Shown in pieces: positions 1-15,794 of a DNA stretch of 22,952 bases (positions are counted from its first letter, which is position 1; every line of letters begins with the position of its first letter). Source of the stretch: Delftia acidovorans NBRC 14950 (GTDB lineage Bacteria > Pseudomonadota > Gammaproteobacteria > Burkholderiales > Burkholderiaceae_C); NCBI RefSeq assembly GCF_001598795.1, contig NZ_BCZP01000044.1, forward strand, positions 1 through 22,952, written 5' to 3'. The notes beneath the pieces are model-generated. The model ran no database searches and was not told the origin of the DNA. It worked only from the letters and a program-made list of their open reading frames with translations. Both the position numbers and the translations under genes were made by a program.

Positions 1-1755
1 CCCACCCCCGCCCCCGCCCCACTCACCATCGTTTTCTGCGACGACTATCTGGACCCGCGCCTGGGCGCCATTGACGCCAACCAGCGTGCCGCAGGCCGGC
101 CCTGGCTGCTGGTGCGGCCAACAGGCGAGCAGGCCATGGCGGGACCGCTTTTCAAACCCCAGGCAGCGGCCTGCTGGCATTGCCTCGCACACCGCTGGCA
201 ACGCAACCATCCCGCACGCGGCGGCAAGCACGGCCAGCCTCAGGACGGCGACCGCTGCCCGCCCGTGCGCGCCGGCGCCGACCTCATCGCCACGCGGCTG
301 CAGGCCCTGCTGCCCACGGTGCAGCGCCTGCTGGCGCACACCGATGCGGCGCAAACCGTGTGGACGCTGGAGCCTGACCAGCCCCACCCGGTGGCCGCCC
401 GCCCGCAATGCCCGCACTGCGGCACGCCAGGGCTGATGGCCCTGCGCCAGCGTGAACGCATTGCGCCAGTTCCCGGCACGCATGCCGCGCGCGCCGATGG
501 CGGCTGGCGCAGCGTGCCGGCCGAGACCACGGTGCAGCGCCTGTCGCAGCACGTCAGCCCGCTGACCGGCGTGATTGCCAGGGTCACGCCGCTGACGGCC
601 GAGACCGACGAAGCACTCACCGTCTACCGCAGCGAAATCTTCAGAACACCGGCCCCCGGCAGCACCAGCCTGGCCGGCTCCGGAACACAGCTGTGTCTGG
701 GCAAGGGCCTGTCGGCCATGCAGGCCCGCGCCAGCGCCATGTGCGAAGCGGTGGAACGCTACGCCGCCTTCCACCAGGGCGACGAAGCCGTAATCGTCGC
801 CCCCGCCGCCGAGCTGGACGCGCCCTGCATCGCGCCCACGGAACTGGCTCGCTTCAGCGAGCGGCAAACCGCCGGCTTTGCCACCGACAGGCCACCGCAT
901 GCCGTGGCCCCCAGCGCCGGCCAGGGCGAGCCCCTGTGGTGGGCTCCCGCCTGGTCCCTGACCGCCGATGCGCGCCGCTACCTGCCGCTGGCCTTCTGCC
1001 TGGCCCATGCGCCCGCGCAAAGCCAGCACCACGTGGGCTGGACCTCCAACGGCTGCGCCGCAGGCAACACGCGGGAAGAGGCCATCCTGCAAGGCTTCAT
1101 GGAACTGGTGGAACGCGACGCCGCCGCCATCTGGTGGTACGGCCAGATCCGCAGGCCCGCCATTGCGCTGCAAGGCATCGACCAGGCCACGCGCCAGCGC
1201 CTGGACCGCAGTTGCGGCCCGCAATGGTCGTACTGGCTGCTGGACATCACGCATGACTTCGGCATACCCGTGGTCGTCTCCGTGGGCCGCCATGCACAGA
1301 CCGGCCAATGGGCCGTGGGCTTTGGCTGCAGCCTGGACCGCGCCCTGGCCTGCGAACGCGCCCTCACCGAAATCAGCCAGCTGATCGCGGCCGGCAAAAG
1401 CTTTGCCGTGCCCGAGCCACTGCAGGCCTTCCTGCACCCTGCGGACAGCGCCGATGCGCCGCCGCAACAGCCTGCGCCTCTGTCTGGGCACACGCCGGAC
1501 ACCACGCCGCCGGACATTGCCCAGGCCATTGCGCGCTGCGTGGACATCGCACGCGGCCTGGGCCTGGAAACCATCGTCTACGACCACTCGCGCCCCGACA
1601 TCCCTGTGCACACCGTCAAAGTCGTGATTCCCGGCCTGTGCCATATCTGGCCGGAACTGGGCAATCCACGGCTGCGCAACGTACCCGTGGCCCTTGGCTG
1701 GCGCAGCCGGCCGCTGCAGGAATCCGAACTGAATCCGCAGGCTCTGTACGTTTGA
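1..1755 (+). CDS. Fused E1-like (cyclodehydratase C-type) / YcaO (D-type) protein of a TOMM/RiPP azoline-forming system; 5'-truncated by the window edge
   Basis: Frame 1 is open from nt 1 (PTPAPAPLTIVFCDDYLDPRLGAIDANQRAAGRPWLLVRP...), so the GTG at 112 used by the track is internal. Two CxxC pairs (CWHC nt 172-183, CPHC nt 409-420) resemble the Zn site of E1/ThiF-like domains. From about nt 520 the YcaO hallmarks GKGLSAMQARASAMCEAVERYAA and GCAAGNTREEAILQGFMELVERDAAAIWWY appear. GC3 is high throughout. Confidence 0.85.
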   Translation, partial: PTPAPAPLTIVFCDDYLDPRLGAIDANQRAAGRPWLLVRPTGEQAMAGPLFKPQAAACWHCLAHRWQRNHPARGGKHGQPQDGDRCPPVRAGADLIATRLQALLPTVQRLLAHTDAAQTVWTLEPDQPHPVAARPQCPHCGTPGLMALRQRERIAPVPGTHAARADGGWRSVPAETTVQRLSQHVSPLTGVIARVTPLTAETDEALTVYRSEIFRTPAPGSTSLAGSGTQLCLGKGLSAMQARASAMCEAVERYAAFHQGDEAVIVAPAAELDAPCIAPTELARFSERQTAGFATDRPPHAVAPSAGQGEPLWWAPAWSLTADARRYLPLAFCLAHAPAQSQHHVGWTSNGCAAGNTREEAILQGFMELVERDAAAIWWYGQIRRPAIALQGIDQATRQRLDRSCGPQWSYWLLDITHDFGIPVVVSVGRHAQTGQWAVGFGCSLDRALACERALTEISQLIAAGKSFAVPEPLQAFLHPADSADAPPQQPAPLSGHTPDTTPPDIAQAIARCVDIARGLGLETIVYDHSRPDIPVHTVKVVIPGLCHIWPELGNPRLRNVPVALGWRSRPLQESELNPQALYV

Positions 1756-1874
1756 CAAACTGAAAAGCGCAGCGGGCATGTACTCTCTCAGCTTGGCAAC
1801 AGGCTGCCGGCTCCGGGCCAATGCGCCCCCAGCCCACCCCCTGTTCACACAAGCCCCAAGGAGAATTCGAGGCG

Positions 1875-2819
1875 ATGGCCCTCTTTCGTAACCAACTCGA
1901 CGGCCGCATCGTCGTGCTGCGGCCCCTGCATACCTTCGGCCGCCATCCCTCGGTCTGCCAGACCGTCATGAAGGCGCCCGACGTCTCCCAGGTCCACGCA
2001 CTGTTCCGCTGGAACCGGCAGACCTGGGAAATCGTGGACCAGAGCCGCAACGGCACCATGCTCAACGGCGTGCGCCTGGTCGCCGGCCGCTGGACCGTTT
2101 TGGCGGTGGGCGCCAAGCTCAGCATGGGCGAAGGCGCAGAAGCGGCCTGGACCGTGGAAGACCTGGGCCCGCCCATCACCTGCCTGAGCCCCGGCCCGGG
2201 ACTGCCCCAGGACGGCCCCCTGGCCCTGAACCCGCGCGGCACCCTGCTGCCCGACGCGCAGGAGCCCGAAGCCAACGTCTTCTTCGAGGATGGCCGCTGG
2301 CTGCAAGAGTCCGGCGACGGCACCGAGCCCCTGGTGGACGGCGCCATGGTCCACACCTCCGCAGGCAGCTGGGAATTCGTGCAATGCGACGACCTGGAAT
2401 CCACGCGGGAAAGCAGCTTCGACCCGCGTGCGCCCAAGCCGCCGGAAGTGTCCTTTCGCTTCACCGTCAGCCAGAACGAAGAGCACGCCAGCCTGACCGT
2501 CATGAGCGACGGCAAACCCATTGCGCTGGGCGAACGCATACACCACTACACCCTGGTCACCCTGGCCCGCGTGCGCCAGCAGGACGCAGAAAAAGGCCTG
2601 GCCCCCGCAAGCCAGGGCTGGATAGAACTGGATGCACTCTCACGCATGCTGGGCGTGGAGCCCTCGTACGTGAACATCCAGATCTTCCGCGCCAAGCACC
2701 AGATCCTCAGCGCCCTGCCCGAATGCGCTGCCTCGCCCGCCCTGGTGGAGCGGCGGCGCGGCAGCCTGCGCTTCGGAGACTTTCCGTTCGAGATCGAAGG
2801 CGGGGCGCGCAGCGCCTGA
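1875..2819 (+). CDS. FHA-domain protein with a C-terminal OmpR/PhoB-like winged-helix DNA-binding domain
   Basis: ATG at 1875 is preceded by AAGGAGA (nt 1858-1864), so the track start at 1821 is less likely. N-terminus is FHA-like: IVVLRPLHTFGRHPSVCQTVM...VSQVHALFRWNRQTWEIVDQSRNGTMLNGVRL. C-terminus has the wHTH pattern LTVMSDGKPIALGERIHHYTLVTLAR...SYVNIQIFRAKHQIL...LVERRRGSLRF (compare VDVHIxRLRxKL ... TVRGxGYRF). Confidence 0.8.
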   Translation: MALFRNQLDGRIVVLRPLHTFGRHPSVCQTVMKAPDVSQVHALFRWNRQTWEIVDQSRNGTMLNGVRLVAGRWTVLAVGAKLSMGEGAEAAWTVEDLGPPITCLSPGPGLPQDGPLALNPRGTLLPDAQEPEANVFFEDGRWLQESGDGTEPLVDGAMVHTSAGSWEFVQCDDLESTRESSFDPRAPKPPEVSFRFTVSQNEEHASLTVMSDGKPIALGERIHHYTLVTLARVRQQDAEKGLAPASQGWIELDALSRMLGVEPSYVNIQIFRAKHQILSALPECAASPALVERRRGSLRFGDFPFEIEGGARSA

Positions 2820-3006
2820 ACGGTGAACTGGAAGGGAGAACGGCAGGCACACGGCGCATCGCTCGCCGCATGTAATCAGCTGTAATTTTCTTGTTGTGCA
2901 CACGTGAATAAAGTGGGAACCGGTTCTTGCCGCCTGCGGTGCGAACCCTCTCACCCTCCTCCCGGACCGGGTTGCCCGAGTCCACTGGCGCACCTGGAAG
3001 ACGCAA

Positions 3007-3354
3007 ATGAGCATGGACATGCGACGTGTACTGTTGATCCCCGCCAGCGCGCGGCCTGTTGACCCTGGCCTGGCCAGCCTTTCCATGGACGCACAGGTCT
3101 GGGAAAACGGCTATCCGCTGGTCGTAGGCAAGGCCCGCCACGGCCTGCTTCAGGACTTCTGGCGGCACTACTACGGCGAATCCGCCGCCATGTTCGTTGC
3201 CGCCGACCAGCTGCTGGAACTGCACAACGACATCATGGCCGCCATCCCCGCCTGCGTGGGCGAGATGCCCGTGCTGCGCTTTCTCAACGATCTCGGAAGA
3301 ATGTGCCTGCAGGCGCATGGGGATGGCAGCGGGCTGCAGGTCATCGGCGACTGA
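3007..3354 (+). CDS. Hypothetical 115-aa cytoplasmic protein (no family recognised)
   Basis: ATG at 3007 follows GGAAG. Codon usage is strongly GC3-biased (ctg/gcc/ggc/gac), as in neighbouring genes. An intrinsic terminator follows at 3403-3432. There is no signal peptide or TM segment. Confidence 0.65.
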   Translation: MSMDMRRVLLIPASARPVDPGLASLSMDAQVWENGYPLVVGKARHGLLQDFWRHYYGESAAMFVAADQLLELHNDIMAAIPACVGEMPVLRFLNDLGRMCLQAHGDGSGLQVIGD

Positions 3355-3402
3355 CGAAACGGATGACTCCTGGGGTTGCCGCGCGTCCCTCTCGCGGCAT
3401 TG

Positions 3403-4398: not shown

Positions 4399-5133
4399 AT
4401 GAAAAATTCGGGCACCCATCATGCCAATGTTGAAAACAGGATAATACGCCTGCTTTATCCTTCATCGGCAGATTACTTTGTTGAGCACTGTGAAGTGTTC
4501 GAATTGATTGCACTATCAGAATTGAGCAAAGCAGGCAACCCTCTGGAGCACGCTTACTTTCCTGAAAGCGGATGCATCTCCTTGGTTATGGAAATCAACA
4601 GCAACCATTCCCTGGGACATTCCCTGGGAATAGGCATGGTAGGGAATGAGGCGATGGTCGGGTCAGAAAGCATTCTAGGCCATGCAACACCTCCTCCTTG
4701 GAAGATTTTGGTACAGCAATCTGGTACCTGCTGGCGAATAAGCCGCACGGATTTAGAAAAGCAGTGCACAGAGATCCCCATGCTCGGTGAACTGATTAAA
4801 AAATTCATACTTGTGCGCTTGCATCAACAGGCACGTTTCACAGTCTGCCTGAACTACCATACGGCAGCCTCCCGTCTGGCCCGATGGCTGTTGATGAGCA
4901 GCGACCGATGTGCCGGCAGCTTCCATGTCACACAGCAATTCATGGCATTGATACTGGGCGTACGGCGTGTCAGCATCACCAACATCGCCAGCAGATTTCA
5001 GAACGACGGCATGATTGCCTACAAACGTGGTGAGATGATGGTATTGAACCGCGCAGCGCTGGAAAACAGGGCGTGCAGCTGCTACGCGGCAGACAGACAA
5101 ATCTATTCAAGAATCATGGGCACCCCGGCCTGA
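4399..5133 (+). CDS. Crp/Fnr-family transcriptional regulator (cNMP-binding-like domain plus C-terminal HTH)
   Basis: HAYFPESGCISLV...VGNEAMVG (beta-roll); RLARWLLMSSDR...VTQQFMALILGVRRVSITNIASRFQNDGMIAYKRGEMMVLNRAALENRACSCY (HTH_Crp). ATG at 4399. The gene sits in the AT-richer patch. Confidence 0.85.
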   Translation: MKNSGTHHANVENRIIRLLYPSSADYFVEHCEVFELIALSELSKAGNPLEHAYFPESGCISLVMEINSNHSLGHSLGIGMVGNEAMVGSESILGHATPPPWKILVQQSGTCWRISRTDLEKQCTEIPMLGELIKKFILVRLHQQARFTVCLNYHTAASRLARWLLMSSDRCAGSFHVTQQFMALILGVRRVSITNIASRFQNDGMIAYKRGEMMVLNRAALENRACSCYAADRQIYSRIMGTPA

Positions 5134-5251: not shown

Positions 5252-5410
5252 ATGAGTCTGACCACCATTCTTCTAATCGTCCTGATCCTGGTGCTTGTAG
5301 GCGCTCTGCCTTCATGGCCCCACAGCCGTAGCTGGGGATACGCTCCCAGCATTGCGATAAGCCTGCTGGTGGTGGTGGTCGTGGTATTGCTGCTTACGGG
5401 GCGGGCCTAA
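5252..5410 (+). CDS. DUF3309-family small membrane protein (52 aa)
   Basis: ATG at 5252 is preceded by GGAGAG (5242-5247). Sequence MSLTTILLIVLILVLVGALPSWPHSRSWGYAPS...LLLTGRA matches the pattern I recall for DUF3309 (two TM helices flanking a W-P-x-S-R-x-W-G-Y motif). Confidence 0.75.
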   Translation: MSLTTILLIVLILVLVGALPSWPHSRSWGYAPSIAISLLVVVVVVLLLTGRA

Positions 5411-6195
5411 GTGCCCTCAAAAACACTGAACTGATAGCCGCTGCGCATGCGCTTGGCCCGATACATGGCGCGATCCGCATCAGCAATCAATTGCTCCGCA
5501 GACACAGGCCATTCGTGTGCGATCACGATGCCCATGCTGGCCTCCACTTTCAGCTCCAGCCCGTTGCAGTGAATGGGGTTGGCTATTTCCCTGCAGATCA
5601 TTCTGGCCAAGGCGCGCAGCTGCTCCATTTCCGGAGAGGGCTCCAGCAGGCATGCGAACTCGTCGCCTCCCAGCCTGCACACCAGATCCTCTCGGCGGAT
5701 GAAGGATCTCAGGCGGCCCGATACGACCTTGAGGACTTCATCTCCTGCACTGTGGCCATGGAGATCGTTGATTGTCTTGAAGCCATCCAGATCCATATAC
5801 AACACCGCGATGGGAATGGCCTGGGGCATGGCAAAGCCGATCGCCCTGGAAAGCCGATCCAGGAATGAGAACCTGTTCGGCAGGGAGGTCAGATGGTCAT
5901 GTGTCGCCAGGTGATGCGCTGCGCGTTCATCCGCCTTGGTCCTGTCAAGCTCGAAATGCGCCTTTCCCAGGGCGATACGCGTGTTGTGCAACTCCTCGCG
6001 CAGTGAGTCGCATTGCCGCTGCAGGCCTTGCAAACAGGCTTCAAGCCCCTTGCGCATTCGATTTTCCACGGAGACGCCCAGCCAGTGATTTCGCTCGAAA
6101 TCCGACTGGATGGCGTGGGGGCGAAGGCCTGCTTCGTCTGCAAAAAAAGCACCTGTTCTTCTTGATCCGATGTGCCTTGGATACCTTTGAGCCAT
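5407..6195 (-). CDS. GGDEF-domain diguanylate cyclase with an N-terminal coiled-coil and no recognisable sensor domain
   Basis: ATG (cat at 6193-6195) with GAGGA upstream. Motifs LTSLPNRFSFLDRL, LYMDLDGFKTINDLHGHSAGDEVL and RLGGDEFACLL. An RxxD I-site candidate (RRED) lies 5 residues before GGDEF. Confidence 0.9.
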   Translation of the reverse strand: MAQRYPRHIGSRRTGAFFADEAGLRPHAIQSDFERNHWLGVSVENRMRKGLEACLQGLQRQCDSLREELHNTRIALGKAHFELDRTKADERAAHHLATHDHLTSLPNRFSFLDRLSRAIGFAMPQAIPIAVLYMDLDGFKTINDLHGHSAGDEVLKVVSGRLRSFIRREDLVCRLGGDEFACLLEPSPEMEQLRALARMICREIANPIHCNGLELKVEASMGIVIAHEWPVSAEQLIADADRAMYRAKRMRSGYQFSVFEGT

Positions 6196-7109: not shown

Positions 7110-10100
7110 ATGCAAATGCGCAAGCGCTGGAAATGGATACCGCCACATATCAGCCACCTGCTGGATGCCCGCCATGGAGAAGTCCTGGCACCCATCAGGT
7201 CGGAGCTTTTTGGCTGCGCACACTTTGAACAGTATGGGATGACCCTGGGGGGCGCGCATGCCGTGGGCCGCCCCCGTTTTGGCCAGGCGACGTTCTATCC
7301 ACGTCTTGAAAACAATCTCAGATCCCTGCGCACCTCATTCAGGTACATCGCCGGCCTGCACCAGGAGGGCCATGAGCTGGGATCTGGCGCAGAGTGGCTT
7401 TTCGACAATTTCCACCTGATCGAGGATCAGTTGCGGGAGATCAGCGAAGGCCTTTCCATCCGCTACTACCGCTCGCTGCCCGTCTTGCAGGAGGCCCCCC
7501 TCACAGGCCTTCCACGCATCTACCAGGTGGCATGGTCCTTTGTCGCCCACACCGATGGTGCCTTCGATGAATCGCTATTGACCTGTTTTCTTGACGCATA
7601 CCAGAGCAAGAGCGAACTCAGCCAGGGTGAGCTCTGGGCGCTGCCCACCACGCTGCGGGTGATTCTGGTCGAGAATTTGAGGCGCCTGGCGGAGCGGATT
7701 GCGTGCCAGGCGGCGGCCAAGGAGGTGGCTACCCTGGCTGCGGGCCATATCGACAGGCTCGATGCCGCCGGCTTCCACGAAATCCACCGCTTGATGCAAT
7801 TGCGCGGTGTAGGCCAGGTCTTCCTGTCCCATCTGGCGCAAACACTCTTTGGGCATCGCTCGGTCTTCAGCGACGGCGCGTACATGCAGATCGAAGAGTG
7901 GCTGCGCAGTGCAGTGCCCGATCTGGCGGCACTGCAGGTGCAGCAGCATGCCGACAGCGCGGCCGACCACCTGAGCGTGGGCAATGCGGTGGCCTCGCTG
8001 CGGCTGGTGGGCGCCGGGGACTGGCCCGGTATCGTGGGCAGGACCAGCCTGGTCGTGCGCGCACTGCAGGCCTCGCCCGTTTTCCTGGCCGAGGACGATG
8101 CCAGCCGCAACACTACGCTGCATGGCATAGAGCGCCTGGCCGCGCGCAGCCCTGATCGCTCCGAGGCCGCCGTGGCCAGGGCCCTCATCCGGTTGATGGG
8201 CCAGTCGCAGGGCGCAGCCCAACTGGCCGGGTACTGGCTGCAGGGCGAGGGACGCGCCCAACTGGAGGACATGTTCGGCGCGCGACGGCCCCTGTCGGAC
8301 CGCTGGTATGCCATCCTCCTGCTGTCGCGCACGGTCACCTACATCGGCGCCGTTGTGGCAGCTTCGCTGGCCCTGGTGGCATGGATGCTGCACCTCAACG
8401 GCGCAGGCAATGCCGCCGCGATGCAGGGTCCGCTGGGTCCCCTGGGCCCGCTGGACGCATGGGTGGGCCATGCAGGCCTGGCCCTGCTGGGACTGCTCAT
8501 GTTTTTCCCGGCCTCCGAGGCGGTTTTGGCCCTGGTGAACCGGCTCATATGCGAGTCCGCCACTCCAGCGCATCTGCCGCGCTTTCTCTTGAAGGAGGGG
8601 ATCGGCCCCTCGGCGCGCACCCTGGTCGTCATTCCTGCGCTGCTGAGCAAGCCTGCTGCCATCTCCGAACTGGCACACCGCCTGCTGTTGCACTATCTCG
8701 CCAATCCGGAGCACTGTGTCCATTTCGCGCTGCTGAGCGATTGGGCGGATGCGGACCGGCAGGGCACGGCCGACGATGAGCCGCTGCTCGCGCAGGCACG
8801 CGAACAGATACAGGCGCTCAACCTGCGCTACCCCGCCGGGGAGGGCCAGGCCCAGCGCTTTTTGCTGCTGCACCGCCCCCGGTCCTTCAGCGCGACGCAG
8901 GGCCTGTGGATGGGCTGGGAGCGCAAGCGCGGCAAGCTCGAGCAACTGGTGACGGCGCTGGCGACGGAAATGCCGGCCCCCTTCCTGGAGATGGGCGTGC
9001 TGTCCGACCTGCCTGCCGGCGTGCGCTATGTGCTGACGCTGGACAGCGACACCGAACTGCCGCCGGGCCAGGTCAGGGCCTTGGTGGGCATCGCCGAGCA
9101 CCCGCACAACCAGCCCGAACTGGATGCCACCGGGCGCAAGGTCATACGCGGCTACGGCATCCTGCAGCCGCACGTGGTGGCACCCTTGCCGCAGACGCGG
9201 CAAACCTCTGCCTGGCAGTGGCTTTTTTCCGGACAGCGGGGCATGGACCCCTACAGCGCAGCCACTTCGGATGTGTACCAGGACCTCTTTGGAGAAGGCA
9301 GTTTCATCGGCAAGGGCCTTCTCCATGTGCAGGCCCTGCACACCGTGCTGTCGCAGCGCCTGCCCGAGGACCGCATCCTCAGCCATGACCTGCTGGAAGG
9401 CTCGCTGGCCCGCTGCGCGGCGATCTCCGATGTGACCGTGATGGAGTCGGACCCGCTGCACAGCGACACGGCAGCAGCCCGGCTGCATCGCTGGGTGCGC
9501 GGGGACTGGCAATTGCTGCCCGTGCTGTGGCACGGCAGATACTGGCAACTGGCGGTCATCCACCGATGGAAGCTGTTCGACAACCTGCGCCGCTCCCTGG
9601 TTGCGCCCGTGTCGCTGTTGCTGATCGTGCTGTCCATGGCAGGACATGGCCTGGCCCTGCCTTTGTCCCTGGCACTGGCGGCGGCGGCCTGCATCACCGG
9701 GCCGTTGATAGGCGCCATCGCCGGTGCCCTTCCGCACCATGCGCGATTCGTGGGCAGCCGCTTCGCCCTGCAGTGCGCAAGGCAGTTGCTGCAGGTGGCA
9801 CTGTCCGGCGCGTGGTACCTGGCGCAACTGCTGCCGCAGGCCATGCTCCAAGCGGATGCCGTGGCCCGCACGCTGTACCGCATGGCCGTAAGCAAAAGGC
9901 ATCTGCTGGAATGGACCACCGCCGAAGCATCCCATGCCGCCATCCGGCCCGGCTGGGCGCCGGCCTTGTCAAGGCACTGGCACAGCACCGTGCTCGCGCT
10001 TGCGCTGCTGGCGGCCCTGTGGCTGCTGCCCGCCCCGCTGCCAGCCGCGGCATGGCTGCTGCTGTCCGCCTGGGTTTTCACCCCGGCCCTGGTCTGGCTG

Positions 10101-13100
10101 TGCAATGCCCCGTGGCGGGCCCCTTTCAGCCATGCAGGGCTGCAGACCACAGACCGCGAACTGCTGCAGGACATTGCGCGTGACACCTGGCGGCTTTTCG
10201 AGCGCTGCGTGGGCGACGGCGACAACCACCTGCCCCCGGACAACCTTCAGACGGCGCCGTTCGAGGTGCTCGCCCACCGGACCTCTCCCACCAACATCGG
10301 CCTTTATCTGCTCAGCGCCGCCTGTGCGCGGCAGTTCGGCTGGATCGGCACCCAGGATCTGCTGATGCGCCTGGAAGCGACCTCGGCCACGCTGGCCAGG
10401 ATGGAGCGCCACAACGGCCACTTCCTCAACTGGTATGACACCCAGAGCCTGCAGCCGCTGCTGCCTCGCTATGTCTCCACCGTGGACAGCGGCAACCTGG
10501 GAGCCCATCTGCTTGCCGTATCCCGCGCCTGCCTTGAGCTGGCCCGCGCCCCGCTGGATCCTGCGGCCAGCCAGCAGGCGATCCATGCGGCCAGGCGCCG
10601 GTTGAAACCCTGCCTGGCGGGCGCAGCGCGCCTGTTGCAGCGCCCGCTGCAGCAGACGGCTATCGGCCAATTGCTGGACAGCCCCCTGGCCGATCCCGCA
10701 GACATATCGGCCCAGATGATGCTGCAGGGATTGCTGCGCGACGCCTTTGCGGAGCTTCACGCGCTCGATCTGCCGGAACCTGGGGCCGTGGCCGACACCC
10801 CGCCCGGGCCGCAGGACCCCTTGCCATGGCTGCTGGCCGACCTGCTGGCCACCCTGCAGTCGGCGGCCCTGGACGTCAGCGCCGTCGGCGCGGGGCAGCA
10901 AGATGCGATCTCCCTGCGCCTGCGGACGATGGCCCACACCCTGGAGCAGCTGGCGTGGGATGCGGATTTCCGTTTCCTGCTCGACCCGCGGCGGCAATTG
11001 CTGCACATAGGCTACCGGCTCGAGGAGCAGCAACTCGACGCATCGTTCTACGACCTGCTGGCCTCCGAGTCCCGCACCACCAGCTTGCTGGCCATTGCCA
11101 AGGGCGACCTTCCCGCCAGGCACTGGAAGGCGTTGGGCCGGCCGTTCTTCGCCCATGGGCGCAACGCGATTTTGCGGTCCTGGTCGGGGTCCATGTTCGA
11201 GTATCTGATGCCTTCGCTGGTGGCAGTGGAGCCAGCGGGCAGCGCGCTGGACGAGGCCAACCGCTGCGCACTGCGCGAACAGATGGCTTTTGCCAAGGGC
11301 CTGGGCATTCCCTGGGGCATGTCGGAAAGCGCCTATGCGGCGCGCGACCAGTCGCTGGCCTACCAGTACGCATCCCAGGGAGTGCCCTGCCTGGCACTGC
11401 GCCGCACGCCGATGGCAGAGAAAGTCATCGCCCCCTATGCCACGGCGCTGGCCTGCCAGGTGGCTGCGGTACCTGCGTGCGCGAACTTCCGCGCGCTGGC
11501 CGCCCTGGCTGCGCGCGGGCGCTATGGCTTCTACGAGGCCCTGGACTTTTCTGCCGCACGGCAAATCCATGGCGGAAGGTTCACGCTCGTCAGCACCTAC
11601 ATGGCCCATCACCAGGGCATGACCATCGTGGCCCTGGCCAATGTGCTGCTGCAAGGGGTTGCACAGCGCTGGGGCTCTGACCACCCCCGCATCCAGGCCA
11701 TGTCCACGCTGCTGCAGGAGCGCACCCCCCGCGAGCTTGCAGGCCTGAGGCCCGGCGCGCTGGCCGCACCCTTTTTGCATGCCCAGTCCCGACGGCCTGC
11801 CAACGCGATCCGCACCGTCGTCCCGGGGGCCCGGGCCCTGGAGCCGACCCTCTTGCTGAGCAATGGGCGTTACAGCGTTGCATTGCGCGCCAACGGAGCC
11901 GGATGGAGCCGCCTGGGCAACACCCACATCACGCGTTGGCGCGATGACCTGCTGCGCGATGCGCACGGGAGCTTTGTCTACCTGCGAACGGACCGGGACA
12001 GCGCCCCGGTGTCCGTGACCCGCAGCCCGGCACCCGATCCGCAGGCGGCCTACACCAGCACGTTCCACCCGGACCGCATGTGCTTCGATGCCCGCTGGCC
12101 GCAATGGCGTGTGCGCACCACGGTCTGGATCAGCCCTGAAGACGATATCGAGCTGCGCAAGGTCGTGCTGAACAACCTGGGTAACCTGCCCATGGACGTG
12201 GAGCTGATATCGGCCATGGAGGTGGTCCTGGCCGGCGCGGGCGCGGACGAGGCCCACCCGGCGTTCTCCAGCATGTTCGTGAAGGCGCAGTGGCTGGCGC
12301 AGCAGCAGGGCATGCGTTTTGAGCGGGTTGCCCGCCACAAGGAGGAGAAGGTGGTGCAGATGGCCCATTTCGTGGCCGGCACGCAAGGGGAGGTCCTGGG
12401 CCTGCGCTACCAGAGCGATCGGGCGAAATGGGCCGGCCGCAATCACGCGGCCAGCCAGCCGCAGGCGTGCCTGGAGCCCGCACCGGGTGAAGCTGTCGCG
12501 CTGGACACCGGCCTGGATCCCGTCGCCGTGCTGGGTGTGCGCATGCGCGTGGGCCCTGGCGGACAAGTGAGCGTGGTGTTTGCGACGGCTGCCTGCGACA
12601 GTGCCAGCACCCTCATGGCCATCCTGGACAAGTACCGCCAGCCCAGCTATGTGGAGCGCACCTCCGTGATCTCCGCCACCTTGGCGCAGGGCCAGGATGC
12701 CCTGCAGCACCGGCCCCGGCCCGAGTACCTGCCGGCACTGCAACTTCTGGGCACGGCGCTGATGTTCACCCTGCCCAAGCTGCAGCCCGGCCTGCACCCG
12801 CATCGCGCAGGCGCCGTCCGCCTGCCGCAGATCCAGGACCGGCGCGTGCTGTGGCAGTTGGGCCTTTCGGGCGACAGGCCGATCATCGTGGTGAGTGCCG
12901 CGGCGCCCCAAGGCCTGGGCCTGCTGCGCATACTGGGACAGGCCCTGGGCGAATGGTCGCGTGCCGGCGTGGCCTGCGACCTGGTCGTGCTCAGCAGCGA
13001 GTTCCACTCCTACTACATGCCGGTGCAGGCCGAGCTGAACGCCATCGGCGAACAGCATGAGGCGGCCGGCAACGCCCGCCCAGGGCTCAGCACGACAGGC

Positions 13101-15794
13101 TTTCATGTCCTGGGCCAGGATACGCTCACCCCCGCGCAGGCAGCCTGCCTGGAGCGCCTGGCATGTGTGCGCCTGCATGCCGATGGCCGTGCATTGCTGC
13201 AACAGATCCATGCCTGGAGCGAGCAGTTCGAGGCCCAGGCCAGCCGGCGACGCACAGCGCATCTGCCTCAGAAAATACCGGTCCAGCCAAGCCGGGGCTC
13301 GGCTGTCCCCGCATCGACCGGACAGTTCCTCGGCGACCGTGGCCACTTCCAATTCGATGTCAGCGCATCCCGGCGTCCGGGCAGGCCGTGGATCAACGTC
13401 CTGGCCAACCCGGGCTTCGGAGGGCAGATATCCGAAAGCGGCGCAGGCAATACCTGGGCGATCAACAGCCGGCTCAATCAGGTCACGGCCTGGTCCAATG
13501 ATCCCGTCTGCGACATGCCGTCCGAGTGGTTTTTTCTCCAGAACCGGCGCACACGCGAGACATGGAGCGTGGCCCCCAGCGCCTGGGGGCATGCCCAGGC
13601 CCGCTACAGCGTGGTGCATGGCCAGGGCTTCACTGAAATCGCCCACCGCCACGGCGACCTGGGCATCCGTGCGCGCTGGTGCGTGGACATCAGGACGGCC
13701 GTCAAGCAAGTGCGCATCACCGTGGTCAACCATGGCAACTCCAAGATGCACCTGAGGATGGCGGGCATGGTGGAGTGGATGCTGGGCGAGCGCCGGGCCG
13801 ACCGCGCCACGCTGGAGACCATGGCCCTGTGGGCACCGGCGCCCGACAAGCGCTTTCTGGGCCTGCTATGCACCCAGACCGAGGCTGCGGGCGGCTTTGG
13901 CGGCGGCACGGCTTTCTTCTGCGAATCGCATGCCGGCGAAGGCACCCTCGCGGGAAAGCACGACAGCCTTGACTGGACCTGCGACCGCAGCGAGTTCTTT
14001 GCATCCGACGGACATTTGCAGTTCCCGGCACAGCTGGGGCAGCGCAGCGGATACGGGCTCGAACCCTGCGCAGCCCTGTCGCGCCTGGCCACGCTTCGGC
14101 CCGGCGTGACCTGGGAGCAGACCTATCTGATCGGCCATGCAACGAGTCCCGATGCGGCGCGCCAGTTGCTGGAGCAAGCCACCGTCCTGGCCCCCCAGGC
14201 ACGAGAACAGGCCAACAGCGACTACTGGGATGGCCTGCTCCAGGCCACGCAGATCCACACGCCCGATCCGCTGATGGACGTGCTTGTGAACCGCTGGCTG
14301 CCCTACCAGACGGTCTCCTCGCGGCTGTGGTCCAAGGCCGGTTTCTACCAGGCGGGAGGCGCCACCGGTTACCGCGACCAATTGCAGGACGCCATGGCGC
14401 TTGTCTGGGCCGATCCCGGCGTGCTGCGGCAACAGATCACGCTGTGCGCCTCACGGCAATTCCTCGAAGGGGACGTGCAGCACTGGTGGCATGCGCCTGC
14501 GGGTGCCGGCGTGCGCACCCGCTGCAGCGACGACCTGCTGTGGCTGCCCTTCGCCTGCTCGCACTATCTCCAGGCCACTGGCGACACGGCGCTGCTGCAG
14601 CAGCAGGTTCCGTTCCTGGAGGCGCCCGCCATTGCCGACGGCGTGGACGACGTCTACGAAACACCGGGCATCAGCGAAGTTTCGGCTTCGGTCTACGAGC
14701 ATGCGGCGCGCGCCATCGACCGCAGCCTTGCCGTGGGCGTGCACGGCCTGCCCCTGATGGGCGCAGGAGACTGGAACGATGGCATGAGCGCTGTTGGTCA
14801 CCAAGGCCGGGGCGAATCGGTATGGCTCGCCTGGTTCCTGTGCGCCATCGTCACGGACTGGATACCGCTGGCACGCGGCTGCGGCGACGAAGCACGCGCC
14901 GACGCCTGGCAGACAGCCCTGGCCGGCTGGCGCCAGGCCCTGGATGTTGCGGGCTGGGATGGGCGCTGGTACCGGCGGGCGTTCTTCGATGACGGCACGG
15001 TGCTGGGCTCGGCCCGGCAGCCCGAGGCGCGCATCGATCTGATTGCGCAGGCCTGGTCGGTCCTGGTCACCACGGCAGGCACATCGCGCCCGCGCATTGC
15101 CATGGAAGCGGTGGACACGGAGCTGGTCCAGCCCGATACAGGCCTGATCCCGCTGCTGGCACCGCCCCTGGTCCATGGCCTTCCGCATGCGGGCTACATC
15201 CAGGCCTACCCGGCAGGGGTGCGGGAAAACGGCGGGCAGTACACCCATGCCGGAGCGTGGGCCGTGATGGCCGCCGCTTCGCTGGCCCTGCGCCAGGCGG
15301 CGCATGCCACCGCCACCGGCAGCGAGCGCCTTCAGGACACACCCTACCGGTACTTCACCTACCTGAGTCCGGCCCATCGCGCCAGCCATCCCGTATGGGG
15401 CAGCCATTACGCCATCGAGCCTTACGCCATGGCAGCAGACGTATACACCCAGCCCCCTTTTGTCGGACGGGGCGGATGGAGCTGGTACACGGGCTCGGCT
15501 GCATGGATGCATCGCGCCGCGGTGGAATCCATCCTGGGGCTGCACATCCACGCCGGGGAACTGTTCTTCACCCCTTGCCTTCCTTCCCATTGGCCCCAGG
15601 CCGAACTGGTATTGAAACGGGAGGGCCGCAGCATGCGCTTTCTCCTGGTTCGCGGCAGCACCGACGCGCTGGCGGCCAGGTGTGCCGTGGAGGGTGCAGT
15701 GATGCTGCAGGTATCGCAGAGGCTGCGCTGGACAGAGCTGGCAGCGCACAGCTGCTTTGTCATCCCTTTGCAAGAGGCCGCGATCGGGACCTAG
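7110..15794 (+). CDS. ndvB: Cyclic beta-1,2-glucan synthase (NdvB/ChvB/Cgs type): membrane GT84 glycosyltransferase, central domain and C-terminal GH94 phosphorylase-like domain
   Basis: Single 2894-aa ORF. GT84-type motifs are GWERKRGKL, LTLDSDTELPPG (about nt 9034-9069) and HRWVRGDWQ (about nt 9486-9512). Several hydrophobic segments are present. The C-terminal region carries GGATGYRDQLQD (about nt 14355-14390) and GAGDWNDGMS, typical of GH94-like (alpha/alpha)6 phosphorylases. Length matches known Cgs/NdvB proteins of roughly 2800-2900 aa, from memory. Confidence 0.92.
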   Translation: MQMRKRWKWIPPHISHLLDARHGEVLAPIRSELFGCAHFEQYGMTLGGAHAVGRPRFGQATFYPRLENNLRSLRTSFRYIAGLHQEGHELGSGAEWLFDNFHLIEDQLREISEGLSIRYYRSLPVLQEAPLTGLPRIYQVAWSFVAHTDGAFDESLLTCFLDAYQSKSELSQGELWALPTTLRVILVENLRRLAERIACQAAAKEVATLAAGHIDRLDAAGFHEIHRLMQLRGVGQVFLSHLAQTLFGHRSVFSDGAYMQIEEWLRSAVPDLAALQVQQHADSAADHLSVGNAVASLRLVGAGDWPGIVGRTSLVVRALQASPVFLAEDDASRNTTLHGIERLAARSPDRSEAAVARALIRLMGQSQGAAQLAGYWLQGEGRAQLEDMFGARRPLSDRWYAILLLSRTVTYIGAVVAASLALVAWMLHLNGAGNAAAMQGPLGPLGPLDAWVGHAGLALLGLLMFFPASEAVLALVNRLICESATPAHLPRFLLKEGIGPSARTLVVIPALLSKPAAISELAHRLLLHYLANPEHCVHFALLSDWADADRQGTADDEPLLAQAREQIQALNLRYPAGEGQAQRFLLLHRPRSFSATQGLWMGWERKRGKLEQLVTALATEMPAPFLEMGVLSDLPAGVRYVLTLDSDTELPPGQVRALVGIAEHPHNQPELDATGRKVIRGYGILQPHVVAPLPQTRQTSAWQWLFSGQRGMDPYSAATSDVYQDLFGEGSFIGKGLLHVQALHTVLSQRLPEDRILSHDLLEGSLARCAAISDVTVMESDPLHSDTAAARLHRWVRGDWQLLPVLWHGRYWQLAVIHRWKLFDNLRRSLVAPVSLLLIVLSMAGHGLALPLSLALAAAACITGPLIGAIAGALPHHARFVGSRFALQCARQLLQVALSGAWYLAQLLPQAMLQADAVARTLYRMAVSKRHLLEWTTAEASHAAIRPGWAPALSRHWHSTVLALALLAALWLLPAPLPAAAWLLLSAWVFTPALVWLCNAPWRAPFSHAGLQTTDRELLQDIARDTWRLFERCVGDGDNHLPPDNLQTAPFEVLAHRTSPTNIGLYLLSAACARQFGWIGTQDLLMRLEATSATLARMERHNGHFLNWYDTQSLQPLLPRYVSTVDSGNLGAHLLAVSRACLELARAPLDPAASQQAIHAARRRLKPCLAGAARLLQRPLQQTAIGQLLDSPLADPADISAQMMLQGLLRDAFAELHALDLPEPGAVADTPPGPQDPLPWLLADLLATLQSAALDVSAVGAGQQDAISLRLRTMAHTLEQLAWDADFRFLLDPRRQLLHIGYRLEEQQLDASFYDLLASESRTTSLLAIAKGDLPARHWKALGRPFFAHGRNAILRSWSGSMFEYLMPSLVAVEPAGSALDEANRCALREQMAFAKGLGIPWGMSESAYAARDQSLAYQYASQGVPCLALRRTPMAEKVIAPYATALACQVAAVPACANFRALAALAARGRYGFYEALDFSAARQIHGGRFTLVSTYMAHHQGMTIVALANVLLQGVAQRWGSDHPRIQAMSTLLQERTPRELAGLRPGALAAPFLHAQSRRPANAIRTVVPGARALEPTLLLSNGRYSVALRANGAGWSRLGNTHITRWRDDLLRDAHGSFVYLRTDRDSAPVSVTRSPAPDPQAAYTSTFHPDRMCFDARWPQWRVRTTVWISPEDDIELRKVVLNNLGNLPMDVELISAMEVVLAGAGADEAHPAFSSMFVKAQWLAQQQGMRFERVARHKEEKVVQMAHFVAGTQGEVLGLRYQSDRAKWAGRNHAASQPQACLEPAPGEAVALDTGLDPVAVLGVRMRVGPGGQVSVVFATAACDSASTLMAILDKYRQPSYVERTSVISATLAQGQDALQHRPRPEYLPALQLLGTALMFTLPKLQPGLHPHRAGAVRLPQIQDRRVLWQLGLSGDRPIIVVSAAAPQGLGLLRILGQALGEWSRAGVACDLVVLSSEFHSYYMPVQAELNAIGEQHEAAGNARPGLSTTGFHVLGQDTLTPAQAACLERLACVRLHADGRALLQQIHAWSEQFEAQASRRRTAHLPQKIPVQPSRGSAVPASTGQFLGDRGHFQFDVSASRRPGRPWINVLANPGFGGQISESGAGNTWAINSRLNQVTAWSNDPVCDMPSEWFFLQNRRTRETWSVAPSAWGHAQARYSVVHGQGFTEIAHRHGDLGIRARWCVDIRTAVKQVRITVVNHGNSKMHLRMAGMVEWMLGERRADRATLETMALWAPAPDKRFLGLLCTQTEAAGGFGGGTAFFCESHAGEGTLAGKHDSLDWTCDRSEFFASDGHLQFPAQLGQRSGYGLEPCAALSRLATLRPGVTWEQTYLIGHATSPDAARQLLEQATVLAPQAREQANSDYWDGLLQATQIHTPDPLMDVLVNRWLPYQTVSSRLWSKAGFYQAGGATGYRDQLQDAMALVWADPGVLRQQITLCASRQFLEGDVQHWWHAPAGAGVRTRCSDDLLWLPFACSHYLQATGDTALLQQQVPFLEAPAIADGVDDVYETPGISEVSASVYEHAARAIDRSLAVGVHGLPLMGAGDWNDGMSAVGHQGRGESVWLAWFLCAIVTDWIPLARGCGDEARADAWQTALAGWRQALDVAGWDGRWYRRAFFDDGTVLGSARQPEARIDLIAQAWSVLVTTAGTSRPRIAMEAVDTELVQPDTGLIPLLAPPLVHGLPHAGYIQAYPAGVRENGGQYTHAGAWAVMAAASLALRQAAHATATGSERLQDTPYRYFTYLSPAHRASHPVWGSHYAIEPYAMAADVYTQPPFVGRGGWSWYTGSAAWMHRAAVESILGLHIHAGELFFTPCLPSHWPQAELVLKREGRSMRFLLVRGSTDALAARCAVEGAVMLQVSQRLRWTELAAHSCFVIPLQEAAIGT

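Follow-up and report, generated by a model that had tools for sequence, protein, structure and literature searches.

An FHA and winged-helix-like protein genetically linked to Ser/Thr kinases, and a conserved TGTAAT direct repeat as its predicted operator, in an NHLP-Burk TOMM cluster of Delftia acidovorans

The stretch of DNA analyzed here, hereafter the window, comprises 22,952 nucleotides of Delftia acidovorans NBRC 14950 and opens within the gene of a fused TOMM cyclodehydratase (Table 1). A preliminary description of this DNA, made from the sequence alone, had named a YcaO gene at this place, and profile searches agree, as the truncated ORF matches YcaO of Pfam (E=4e-81) and TIGR03882 (E=1e-27) and TIGR03604 (E=1e-63) of NCBIfam. 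The gene that concerns us lies on the same strand and starts, as had been described, exactly 119 nt past the YcaO stop at 1755. It is a real and conserved ORF encoding a protein of 314 aa, whose full-length homologues form 105 clusters; the assigned start is backed by a near-invariant Met-Ala N-terminus among these homologues and by an AAGGAG that precedes the ATG by 11 nt, and AlphaFold2 models the protein with a mean pLDDT of 90.9. The next ORF, of 115 aa, has no match in Pfam, NCBIfam or PADLOC and recurs behind the FHA gene in 38 loci of the same gene order, at 35-100% identity. An Rfam search of positions 1700-3400 found no non-coding RNA match in the spacers, and a promoter and terminator scan of positions 1600-3400 returned two terminator-like hairpins, both on the minus strand, inside a gene and at chance level.

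Table 1. Positions of genes, protein domains and predicted regulatory elements in the window
Feature	Position	Strand	Remarks
Fused TOMM cyclodehydratase gene, 3' part	1..1755	+	TIGR03882 leader-binding domain and YcaO/SagD domain; the window start cuts the gene
Gene of the FHA / β-domain / winged-helix-like protein	1875..2819	+	314 aa; ATG at 1875, stop ending at 2819
FHA domain	1875..2165	+	aa 1-97; canonical phospho-Thr-binding residues, judged by sequence
Central all-β domain, no family assignment	2166..2399	+	aa ~98-175; seven strands, pLDDT ~90
Flexible linker with conserved Thr177	2400..2444	+	Thr177 codon at 2403-2405
C-terminal winged-helix-like domain (modelled)	2445..2804	+	aa ~191-310
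TGTAATcagcTGTAAT, tandem direct repeat TGTAAT-N4-TGTAAT, 10-bp period, predicted operator	2871..2886	+	sole match in the window
TAAAGT, -10-like hexamer	2909..2914	+	22 bp downstream of the repeat
115-aa ORF, function unassigned	3007..3354	+	predicted target of the repeat-bearing promoter in the Delftia strain

The cluster of the window is a known NHLP-Burk TOMM cluster, of whose marker genes the cyclodehydratase alone is visible inside the window (NCBIfam scan). Three Delftia loci (L001-L003) encode an FHA protein 99% identical to that of the window together with a complete cyclodehydratase of 723-741 aa, and the genes directly upstream of the FHA gene in these loci are those of a kinase, a precursor and the cyclodehydratase. 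The kinase is a kinase/cyclase fusion (TIGR03903, 1279 bits), which bears out the earlier supposition that the cluster encodes a fused Ser/Thr kinase, as is typical of TOMM clusters of this class, and the precursor is of the fused two-domain type (TIGR03795, E=9e-50). For the cluster of the window itself the TIGR03903 gene is predicted at the head of the operon, upstream and beyond the window.

The N-terminal FHA domain of the preliminary description was readily recovered by profile search, with PF00498 covering aa 20-85 (E=1.6e-12; 48.1 bits against a cut-off of 20.7), and the same profile matches all 102 representatives of the family. The signature is complete in the Delftia protein, with the Gly-Arg loop (G22/R23), Ser-x-x-His (S38/H41) and Asn-Gly (N59/G60), and these phospho-Thr-binding residues are kept among the 102 representatives as follows: G22 in 101, R23 in 95, S38 in 100, H41 in 100, N59 in 95 and G60 in 100. 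By its sequence, then, the domain is a canonical one that retains all phospho-Thr-binding residues, and it is predicted to bind phosphopeptides. AlphaFold2 folds aa 1-97 into the eleven-strand β-sandwich of FHA domains at pLDDT ~95-98, and Foldseek aligns the full model with solved FHA domains at E about 1e-6 and probability 1.00, with a target-normalised TM-score (TMt) of up to 0.86. All 50 Foldseek matches listed for the full model fall on FHA domains, and the family profile retrieves FHA chains only from the sequences of the PDB. The TagH/Fha1 protein of type VI secretion (TIGR03354) was considered and rejected, as its profile reaches 24.9 bits against a cut-off of 120 over the FHA region only and the window contains no T6SS genes.

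The central region of about 125 aa, which had been described as unassigned, does not stand as one unit. In the AlphaFold2 model it resolves into an all-β domain of about 75 aa (aa ~98-170) and a disordered linker (aa 176-185, pLDDT <50), while the remainder is the N-terminal β-sheet of the C-terminal domain. The all-β domain has no Pfam match and may be a degenerate FHA-like sandwich, since hhalign, when given the family's own FHA domain for comparison, aligns only the last strands, at a probability of 45% (E=2e-4). In the linker T177 is kept in 92 of the 102 representatives although its flanking residues vary, which makes this threonine a candidate phospho-acceptor and FHA ligand on grounds of conservation. 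The position +3 from it is mostly L, I, V or A across the representatives, whereas the Delftia protein carries a Ser there and not the aliphatic residue preferred family-wide.

The preliminary description had assigned the C-terminal part to an OmpR/PhoB-like winged helix, and of this assignment a winged-helix-like fold is supported by modelling and the family membership is not. The last 120 aa are modelled with confidence as β3-α1-α2-α3-β-hairpin (stand-alone model: pLDDT 91.3, pTM 0.85), namely three strands, helices 223-239, 252-259 and 263-280, and a β-hairpin with an RRRG motif. The order of these elements agrees with the OmpR/PhoB topology in both the full-length and the stand-alone model, and as modelled the domain is thus winged-helix-like, with helix 263-280 as the putative recognition helix. 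This third helix carries invariant Asn, Gln and Arg residues and the hairpin is rich in Arg; among the 102 representatives R272 is kept in 102, N267 in 101, Q276 in 101, R274 in 99, R299 in 102 and R293 in 93. Membership in Trans_reg_C is not supported, as PF00486 was absent in 129 scans, with no match at E<=10 among 27 C-terminal domains or at E<=1 among the 102 representatives, nor at E<=1 in the 314-aa protein, whereas genuine OmpR-family domains score 1e-20 to 1e-31 with the same library. Across these three sets the FHA domain alone was significant in Pfam and NCBIfam. Searched with Foldseek in PDB and BFVD, the C-terminal model gave nothing at E<=0.001, and its weak matches are to MarR, IclR and other winged helices (best winged-helix E=0.28), with OmpR/PhoB structures absent among the 50 PDB matches listed. 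The C-terminal profile was also compared by hhalign with those of PhoB, OmpR, a 13-member OmpR set and a 5-member set of ECF sigma region 4, in each case yielding short in-register alignments that are not significant; the alignment with the 13-member OmpR profile brings helix 3 and the wing into register at a probability of 5% (E=0.007). The domain is divergent and fails all tests of Trans_reg_C membership that were run.

The best sequence-level similarity of the C-terminal domain is to region 4.2 of ECF sigma factors. Sigma70_r4_2 of Pfam is matched by 6 of the 27 C-terminal domains and 8 of the 102 representatives (best E=0.0036), and hhalign against ECF sigma region 4 gives a probability of 22% (E=1e-3). 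It could be argued on this basis that the domain contacts not DNA but RNA polymerase or a sigma factor, as a region-4 mimic or an anti-sigma-like module, and that the kinase in this way tunes transcription globally. We regard this as most improbable, as all the Sigma70_r4_2 and HTH matches of Pfam are below significance, region 4.2 is itself a DNA-binding HTH, and the local operator-like repeat with fixed promoter geometry described below favors a site-specific factor.

The family to which the protein belongs resolves into about 2,023 clusters when grouped at 50% identity and is currently annotated only as 'FHA domain-containing protein'. The synteny of the FHA gene with YcaO and TOMM genes that had been expected is found, as the gene keeps company with kinase, precursor and YcaO genes in Delftia, Variovorax, Paracidovorax, Curvibacter and Burkholderia, but it is not specific to YcaO. 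YcaO is present in 55 of the 89 loci examined, whereas a Ser/Thr kinase is present in 78 of the 89, usually adjoining the FHA gene, and in 9 of the 11 kinase-less loci the flanking DNA is too short on at least one side to tell. The FHA-kinase pair stays together despite rearrangement of gene order between lineages, one family member (P0116) is itself naturally fused to a Pkinase domain, and distant members adjoin ordinary Pkinase-TPR genes. The conserved partner of the FHA protein is therefore the kinase and not YcaO. As no DNA-binding domain was found in the kinase proteins of the pair, the FHA protein is the sole candidate DNA binder in it. A reading of the module as a defence system was discarded, as the FHA protein has no PADLOC match and the matches of the kinase are generic kinase-domain ones.

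The same neighborhoods bear on the possibility that the FHA protein is an accessory of TOMM biosynthesis, in which the FHA domain would hold a kinase-phosphorylated precursor and the C-terminal β3-α3 part would serve as a PqqD-like RiPP recognition element (RRE) presenting the NHLP-Burk precursor to the cyclodehydratase or the methyltransferase. Co-transcription of the FHA gene with those of the precursor, the methyltransferase and YcaO is indeed suggested by intergenic gaps that measure 23-29 nt in most genera, and the strand-then-helix order of the C-terminal domain is, as we take it, superficially like that of the PqqD-like RRE fold. Nevertheless, 27 of the 89 loci have the FHA-kinase pair with neither YcaO nor precursor within up to 10 kb on each side, and distant members lie beside the ordinary Pkinase-TPR genes. 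Moreover, the YcaO protein already has a leader-binding domain of its own (TIGR03882), PqqD or RRE structures are absent among the Foldseek matches listed, and the residues conserved at the surface are not hydrophobic but Arg, Asn and Gln. We thus find such a role very unlikely.

A tandem direct repeat, TGTAAT-N4-TGTAAT, follows the FHA gene and is unique in the window even when up to two mismatches are allowed, against a chance expectation of 0.10. It falls inside the spacer 2820-3006, one of two stretches that the preliminary description had singled out. A perfect copy occurs in 51 of 93 loci, and in 41 of 41 checked loci of the same gene order the repeat lies 5-58 nt past the FHA gene; the hexamers are invariant and the 4-nt spacer is free. 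At a fixed distance it is followed by TAnAnT, whose key positions over 54 distinct contexts are A in 52, A in 48 and T in 52. A relaxed scan allowing up to two mismatches and requiring A and T at two positions of the -10 box gave 66 sites, compared with 4 in reversed-sequence controls. The generic scan of positions 1600-3400 detected no full sigma-70 promoter, which is consistent with a missing -35 element at the repeat-bearing promoter. The position of the repeat varies between loci, as it is found past the FHA gene, upstream of this gene in divergent orientation, or past the kinase gene, and it precedes unrelated cargo genes at a constant distance of 22 bp to the -10 box; behind it is an Hcp gene in one distant locus (L055), and in one SAR324 locus only it stands directly before the precursor gene. 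In the Delftia-type arrangement the predicted operator would drive the gene or genes downstream of the FHA gene and not the RiPP operon. The cargo genes at YcaO-less loci of Polaromonas and Burkholderia lata show no common theme. A search of the DNA preceding the first operon genes in 35 lineages revealed no family-wide k-mer above shuffled controls, and TAnAGTAAC upstream of the kinase gene, considered as a shared operator, turned out to be a lineage-restricted feature of orthologous promoters.

We attribute the repeat to the FHA protein as its predicted operator because the two co-localize and the kinase is eliminated as a DNA binder. An alternative is that an unlinked canonical OmpR/PhoB response regulator binds the repeats and that the FHA protein does not bind DNA but acts as an adaptor or substrate, modulating the kinase/STAND protein or another target by phospho-Thr docking, like GarA/OdhI or TagH/Fha1. 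TGTAAT does fit the WalR/VicR consensus half-site TGTWAH and resembles the half-sites of pho boxes (PMC4168254, PMC10294691), the C-terminal domain fails the Trans_reg_C and Foldseek tests, and the repeat is absent from about a third of the loci (32 of 91, usually over up to 10 kb on each side), among them most of the YcaO-less Burkholderia loci. Such a regulator would, however, leave unexplained why the repeat tracks the FHA-kinase module through rearrangements, and the spacing of the repeat is 10 bp and not 11. The HTH-like helix pair of the C-terminal domain, with the invariant polar and basic residues of its third helix and its Arg-rich hairpin, likewise argues for DNA binding by the FHA protein itself. 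We therefore consider an unlinked regulator unlikely.

Based on our data we propose, with a probability of roughly 0.6, that the FHA protein is a kinase-controlled transcription activator, the transcriptional output of a one-step Ser/Thr-kinase pair that works in an OmpR/PhoB-like manner. Its partner would be the large TIGR03903 protein (kinase/cyclase/AAA/TPR), whose gene heads the same operon, and this kinase would phosphorylate itself or the FHA protein, in the latter case most plausibly at Thr177 of the linker. The FHA domain would then dock on the phospho-Thr of the kinase or of a second protomer, leading to oligomerization, upon which two C-terminal winged-helix-like domains would load head-to-tail on TGTAAT-N4-TGTAAT. 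The direct repeat would span about -50 to -35 of a promoter devoid of a -35 box, and its occupation would activate rather than repress the gene or genes behind the repeat, in Delftia the 115-aa ORF. The FHA/phospho-Thr switch would in this way take the place of a receiver domain.

To our knowledge, Ser/Thr kinases are common in Proteobacteria and few have a known direct transcriptional output. It is conceivable, although we advance this broader view only tentatively and lean slightly against it, that Hanks-type kinases and FHA-winged-helix factors form a widespread proteobacterial one-step alternative to two-component systems, in which phospho-Thr/FHA oligomerization loads a divergent PhoB-like domain on TGTAAT repeats and which in NHLP-Burk clusters links the expression of small, uncharacterized cargo proteins (the 115-aa protein, RhiA- or PixA-like proteins, Hcp or the precursor) to the modified peptide, through its production or its sensing. 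If our proposal is true, a family of ~2,000 clusters provides the direct transcriptional output of Ser/Thr kinases, and, as the partner kinase is identifiable, the operator predicted and the promoter geometry defined, the circuit can be tested by EMSA and reporters. It would also provide a first regulatory entry to NHLP-Burk TOMM clusters, for which the 2010 description (PMC2887384) and our literature searches yield neither product nor function, and it would draw attention to a group of small, uncharacterized proteins under common control.

NHLP-Burk TOMM clusters with a 'TOMM system kinase/cyclase fusion protein' were described by Haft et al. in 2010, who named Delftia acidovorans as a host; their report is silent on the FHA protein, the methyltransferase, the 115-aa gene and any regulatory element (PMC2887384). 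Unlike the clusters described there, the FHA-kinase pair occurs also without TOMM genes. Our literature searches retrieved no paper on this FHA-winged-helix family or on a RiPP cluster with an FHA regulator, in keeping with the earlier statement that no RiPP regulatory circuit of this kind had been described, and the TGTAAT-N4-TGTAAT element near the FHA-kinase module is a new finding.

EmbR of Mycobacterium tuberculosis, which works with PknH, had been named as the known example of an FHA-plus-winged-helix protein. In both systems an FHA domain couples a transcription factor, in ours a predicted one, to a Hanks-type Ser/Thr kinase, and Foldseek superposes the FHA fold of the Delftia model on that of EmbR (2ff4: E=7e-6, rmsd 1.8 Å). 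The domain order is indeed the reverse, as EmbR consists of a SARP-type OmpR-like winged helix, a BTAD domain and a C-terminal FHA domain, whereas the Delftia protein has its FHA domain at the N-terminus. The latter has neither a BTAD nor a Trans_reg_C match in Pfam, resembles EmbR in the FHA part alone, contains an extra central β domain, and has as its kinase partner a kinase/cyclase/AAA_16/TPR protein. EmbR is not, however, the sole comparator, as EspM of Mycobacterium marinum and M. tuberculosis has an N-terminal FHA domain and a C-terminal HTH, and its C-terminal half alone binds DNA in EMSA (PMC7002343). The order of the Delftia protein is that of EspM, FHA domain first and DNA-binding half, here a predicted one, last, yet the C-terminal halves share no detectable homology and the EspM profile (NCBIfam NF052403) reaches 14.2 bits against a cut-off of 550, over aa 19-67 only. 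EspM is also tied to ESX-1 secretion, has no described kinase partner and belongs to a different phylum.

With the OmpR/PhoB family (PhoB, WalR/VicR, OmpR) the C-terminal domain, as modelled, agrees in the order of its elements, an N-terminal β-sheet, three helices and a C-terminal hairpin, and its helix 3 LNIQIFRARKQ and RRRG hairpin fall in register with VDVHIRRLRK and TVRG in a non-significant hhalign alignment. The predicted Delftia site is, like those of WalR/VicR (TGTWAH-N5-TGTWAH) and PhoB, which has the same type of half-site (PMC4168254, PMC10294691), a tandem direct repeat, here of TGTAAT, although its period is 10 bp and theirs is 11 bp. The Delftia protein differs further in lacking a receiver domain and in the tight turn of three residues between helices 2 and 3. 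A conserved Thr in a disordered segment beside an FHA domain is shared with GarA and OdhI, which also act with Ser/Thr kinases and whose FHA domains in the PDB are matched by the family profile, and by analogy a cis/trans switch of their kind may operate in the Delftia protein. GarA and OdhI, however, are phosphorylated N-terminally and act by inhibiting enzymes, whereas the Delftia protein carries a winged-helix-like domain at its C-terminus.

The FHA protein is probably a Ser/Thr-kinase-coupled FHA transcription factor, and it is a member of a large uncharacterised family. Its start codon is well supported, since homologues share a near-invariant Met-Ala N-terminus and AAGGAG lies 11 nt 5' of the ATG. 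The preceding ORF, truncated by the window start, ends at 1755, which reproduces the 119-nt gap of the preliminary description, and encodes a fused TOMM cyclodehydratase (YcaO PF02624, E=4e-81, with the TIGR03882 leader-binding domain and TIGR03604). The N-terminal FHA domain claimed in that description is well founded: aa 20-85 match PF00498 (E=1.6e-12), the PDB chains matched by the family profile were FHA only, the full-length AlphaFold2 model (mean pLDDT 90.9) resembles solved FHA domains in Foldseek, that of EmbR included, and the phospho-Thr-binding residues G22/R23, S38-x-x-H41 and N59/G60 are kept in 95-101 of the 102 sampled family representatives, all of which carry the domain.

What had been described as one central region of ~125 aa is not a single unit; AlphaFold2 resolves it into an all-beta domain of ~75 aa (aa ~98-170), a disordered linker (aa 176-185, pLDDT <50) and, for the rest, the beta-sheet of the C-terminal domain. 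The all-beta domain has no family match; hhalign finds its last strands weakly similar to strands of the FHA domain of the same family (probability 45%). An aliphatic residue at +3 is the usual pattern of FHA ligands. As Thr177 of the linker is kept in 92/102 representatives despite variable neighbours and its +3 position is mostly aliphatic across the 102, we consider it a candidate phospho-site.

The C-terminal domain is winged-helix-like, probably DNA-binding, and stands outside any matched family. Its assignment to the OmpR/PhoB-like winged helices stood in part: the order of elements in a confident stand-alone model (pLDDT 91.3, pTM 0.85) is that of OmpR/PhoB effector domains, namely three strands, helix 223-239, a two-residue strand, helix 252-259, a three-residue turn, helix 263-280, a hairpin and a final strand. 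Family membership did not follow, as Pfam Trans_reg_C gave no match at E<=1 to the FHA protein or the 102 representatives, nor at E<=10 to 27 isolated C-terminal domains, whereas true OmpR-family domains reach 1e-20 to 1e-31 against that library. Foldseek searches of PDB and BFVD returned nothing at E<=0.001 and no OmpR/PhoB entry among the 50 matches listed; the best interpretable matches, MarR 4b8x (probability 0.91, E=0.28) together with IclR, DsrD, replication initiators and MarR-type phage proteins, were winged helices of a generic kind. Using hhalign with OmpR and sigma control sequences, ten of which were confirmed by Pfam (the profiles also contained TorR, M. tuberculosis PhoP, QseB, CusR, FecI and AlgU), helix 3 and the hairpin fall in register with PhoB and OmpR (consensus hLNIQIFRARKQ with VDVHIRRLRK, ERRRG with TVRG) at non-significant scores (probability <1-5%, E=0.007-0.08). 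hhalign also aligns the helix-turn-helix with ECF sigma region 4.2 (probability 22%, E=1e-3), and the sole recurrent weak Pfam matches are Sigma70_r4_2 and other HTH families; the rival reading of the domain as a sigma-4 mimic is less well supported than that of a kinase-gated activator. The conserved residues of helix 3 (N267 101/102, R272 102/102, R274 99/102, Q276 101/102) and of the hairpin (R293 93/102, R294 88/102, R299 102/102) resemble a surface for nucleic-acid binding.

The part of the cluster missing from the window was taken from the Delftia contigs L001-L003, which encode a 99%-identical FHA protein and, as anticipated from the TOMM class, a Ser/Thr kinase fusion. The Delftia cluster is the NHLP-Burk cluster of Haft et al. 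2010 (PMC2887384), a paper that notes the kinase and names Delftia acidovorans and makes no mention of an FHA protein. The same gene order occurs in Variovorax, Paracidovorax and Curvibacter; in Burkholderia it is FHA, kinase, precursor, precursor, YcaO.

Coordinates of the features discussed
Feature	Location	Description
Kinase/cyclase/AAA_16/TPR protein	L001-L003	1362 aa; TIGR03903 'TOMM system kinase/cyclase fusion protein', 1279 bits
Fused double precursor	L001-L003	TIGR03795
LCM-type methyltransferase gene	L001-L003	
Fused YcaO gene, then FHA gene, then 115-aa ORF	L001-L003	
FHA gene	window 1875 (ATG) to 2819 (stop)	314 aa by translation
TGTAATcagcTGTAAT	window 2871-2886	Spacer after FHA gene; TGTAAT-N4-TGTAAT direct repeat, predicted operator
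TAAAGT	window 2909-2914	-10-like box behind repeat
115-aa ORF	window 3007-3354 (+)	No Pfam, NCBIfam or PADLOC match
Crp-family regulator	window 4399-5133 (+)	cNMP-binding + HTH_Crp_2
Diguanylate cyclase	window 5407-6195 (-)	GGDEF
2894-aa ORF	window 7110-15794 (+)	Domains in the identical Delftia locus: Glycoamylase, GH94 beta-supersandwich, Glyco_hydro_94
Another 115-aa gene	L001 1472-1819	Directly 5' of kinase gene, outside window
TAnAGTAAC[A/G]AA element	L001 1895-1913; equivalent spot in L012-L035	~90-100 nt 5' of kinase start codon, outside window
Palindromes GGACATGTCC and GGACACGTCC	L008 2190-2250	Near-identical, 10 nt apart; 5' of a distant FHA-family gene
Repeat before T6SS Hcp gene	L055 ~9750 (-)	PF05638, E=1e-39
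Repeat before PixA inclusion-body protein gene	L082 ~19268 (-)	PF12306, E=2e-30
P0116	L092 8001-10040	FHA, central domain, C-terminal domain, Pkinase (aa 364-655); metagenomic

The invariant partner of the FHA protein is the kinase, with the YcaO cluster as one cargo among several, because a Ser/Thr kinase ORF, usually adjoining the FHA gene, is present in 78 of 89 loci, 27 of the 89 have a kinase without YcaO, and more distant members also have ordinary Pkinase-TPR genes as neighbours or overlap with a kinase gene 3' of them; in P0116 a family member and a Pkinase domain are naturally fused. The expected co-occurrence with YcaO was found (55/89 loci), whereas a link specific to YcaO was not, and the YcaO share is probably overestimated for the whole family, since 80 of the loci, from a genome scan, are the query's closest relatives (nine were fetched via homologues). 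For nine of the 11 loci without a kinase, the flanking DNA on one side or both is too short for a judgement. An RRE-like biosynthetic role of the FHA protein, which its place in YcaO clusters might suggest, is less well supported than a regulatory one. A profile of aa 98-314 matched 2,023 representative 50%-identity clusters when the cut-off was E<=1e-3 and 753 when it was E<=1e-30, and a scan of species genomes gave 236 stretches encoding a relative. In most of the 150 listed clusters, and nearly all full-length ones, the match sets in at about residue 98, which means that these relatives retain the FHA domain. On the contig of P0116 we also observed, close to it, a Trans_reg_C + nSTAND1/AAA_16 + TPR protein of AfsR-like architecture.

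No second match to the repeat behind the FHA gene turns up in the window, even when two mismatches are allowed (chance expectation 0.10). Perfect copies occur in 51/93 loci, and the looser GTAAT-N5-GTAAT, imperfect copies included, has 61 occurrences in 3.3 Mb, most of it GC-rich. In 41 loci with Delftia-type gene order (Delftia, Comamonas, Variovorax, Paracidovorax/Acidovorax, Curvibacter) it lies 5-58 nt 3' of the FHA gene, its hexamers invariant and its four spacer bases free. Polaromonas and other Acidovorax carry it 400-500 nt 5' of the FHA gene and on the other strand; in a SAR324 genome the kinase gene and an NHLP-Burk-like precursor gene flank it directly, and a distant metagenomic locus of low GC has three hexamers in tandem. 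In 54 distinct contexts the repeat is followed, at a constant distance of 22 bp, by a -10-like TAnAnT (A 52/54, A 48/54, T 52/54 at its three key positions), and hence the repeat spans about -50 to -35 of a promoter without a good -35 box. A relaxed scan gave 66 sites in 59/91 loci against 4 in reversed-sequence controls; about a third of loci had no repeat within DNA usually reaching up to 10 kb on each side. The genes behind it vary: Delftia has the 115-aa ORF there, Variovorax a RhiA-like protein, and other loci a lipoprotein-like protein, Hcp, PixA, a RiPP precursor and several function-unknown proteins. The Hcp and PixA sites, both in loci of distant members, hint that the predicted regulon consists of small secreted or aggregating proteins.

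The 115-aa ORF has conserved counterparts (35-100% identity) 3' of the FHA gene at 38 loci, which belong to Delftia, Comamonas, Variovorax, Paracidovorax/Acidovorax and Curvibacter; in some of these, RhiA-like, 'Collar' and lipoprotein-like genes intervene. Burkholderia-type loci lack it. The other 115-aa gene, 5' of the kinase gene, has a product with a faint low-molecular-weight phosphatase likeness (Wzb-type, E=3e-5, far below threshold), which could be a cognate phosphatase or a chance likeness. The kinase of the cluster bears a nucleotide-cyclase-like domain, and the Crp-family and GGDEF genes lie 1.6-3.4 kb 3' of that cluster; a functional link is doubtful because this neighbourhood is strain-specific, with an HNH gene and others at that place in the other Delftia strains L002 and L003. 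The 2894-aa ORF suggests a protein of the cyclic beta-1,2-glucan synthase type, unrelated to the FHA finding.

No family-wide motif was found before the operons. In front of the kinase operon, there is a different, conserved but lineage-restricted element: a -10-like box followed by GTAAC-N5-GT[A/G]T[C/T], limited to Delftia, Comamonas and Variovorax, with 22 of its 23 occurrences in 3.2 Mb of loci at this one spot, which may be the promoter and 5' leader of that operon. In L008, three GACCACAC direct repeats lie directly upstream of the palindromes; as the TGTAAT repeat is missing there, a different operator may serve. About 110 nt 5' of Burkholderia FHA genes (L005, L072-L091), CAGGTAACGAG stands before a perfect and conserved inverted repeat (GCGAACG-N8-CGTTCGC), which could be an operator or an RNA hairpin.

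We propose that the FHA protein acts as a kinase-gated activator: its FHA domain would dock on a phospho-Thr of the kinase or on pT177 in another protomer, and the resulting oligomerisation would allow tandem binding at about -42, switching on the gene(s) behind the repeat. The protein's DNA binding, its phospho-site and the sense in which it regulates are predictions. In the Delftia arrangement the predicted direct target is the downstream 115-aa gene and not the RiPP operon. The phosphorylation-dependent output proposed in the preliminary description is partly supported, and its domain observations are partly confirmed. As the kinase proteins have no DNA-binding domain, the FHA protein is the only candidate reader of the repeat in the conserved pair. 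An unlinked OmpR-family regulator sitting on it, to which the form of the repeat would be suited, is less well supported. The concrete predicted operator makes the FHA-regulator reading testable.

WalR/VicR bind TGTWAH-N5-TGTWAH, and PhoB likewise binds tandem direct repeats (PMC4168254, PMC10294691); like the repeat described here, these sites are tandem TGTnAn hexamers about one helical turn apart, with a period of 11 bp rather than 10 bp. The FHA protein is proposed to work like an OmpR/PhoB regulator, yet is not filed as a member of that family. We group it with the kinase-coupled FHA transcription factors already known, EmbR and EspM: EmbR has the reverse domain order and an additional BTAD domain, whereas EspM (PMC7002343) shares the domain order and differs in its unrelated DNA-binding half.
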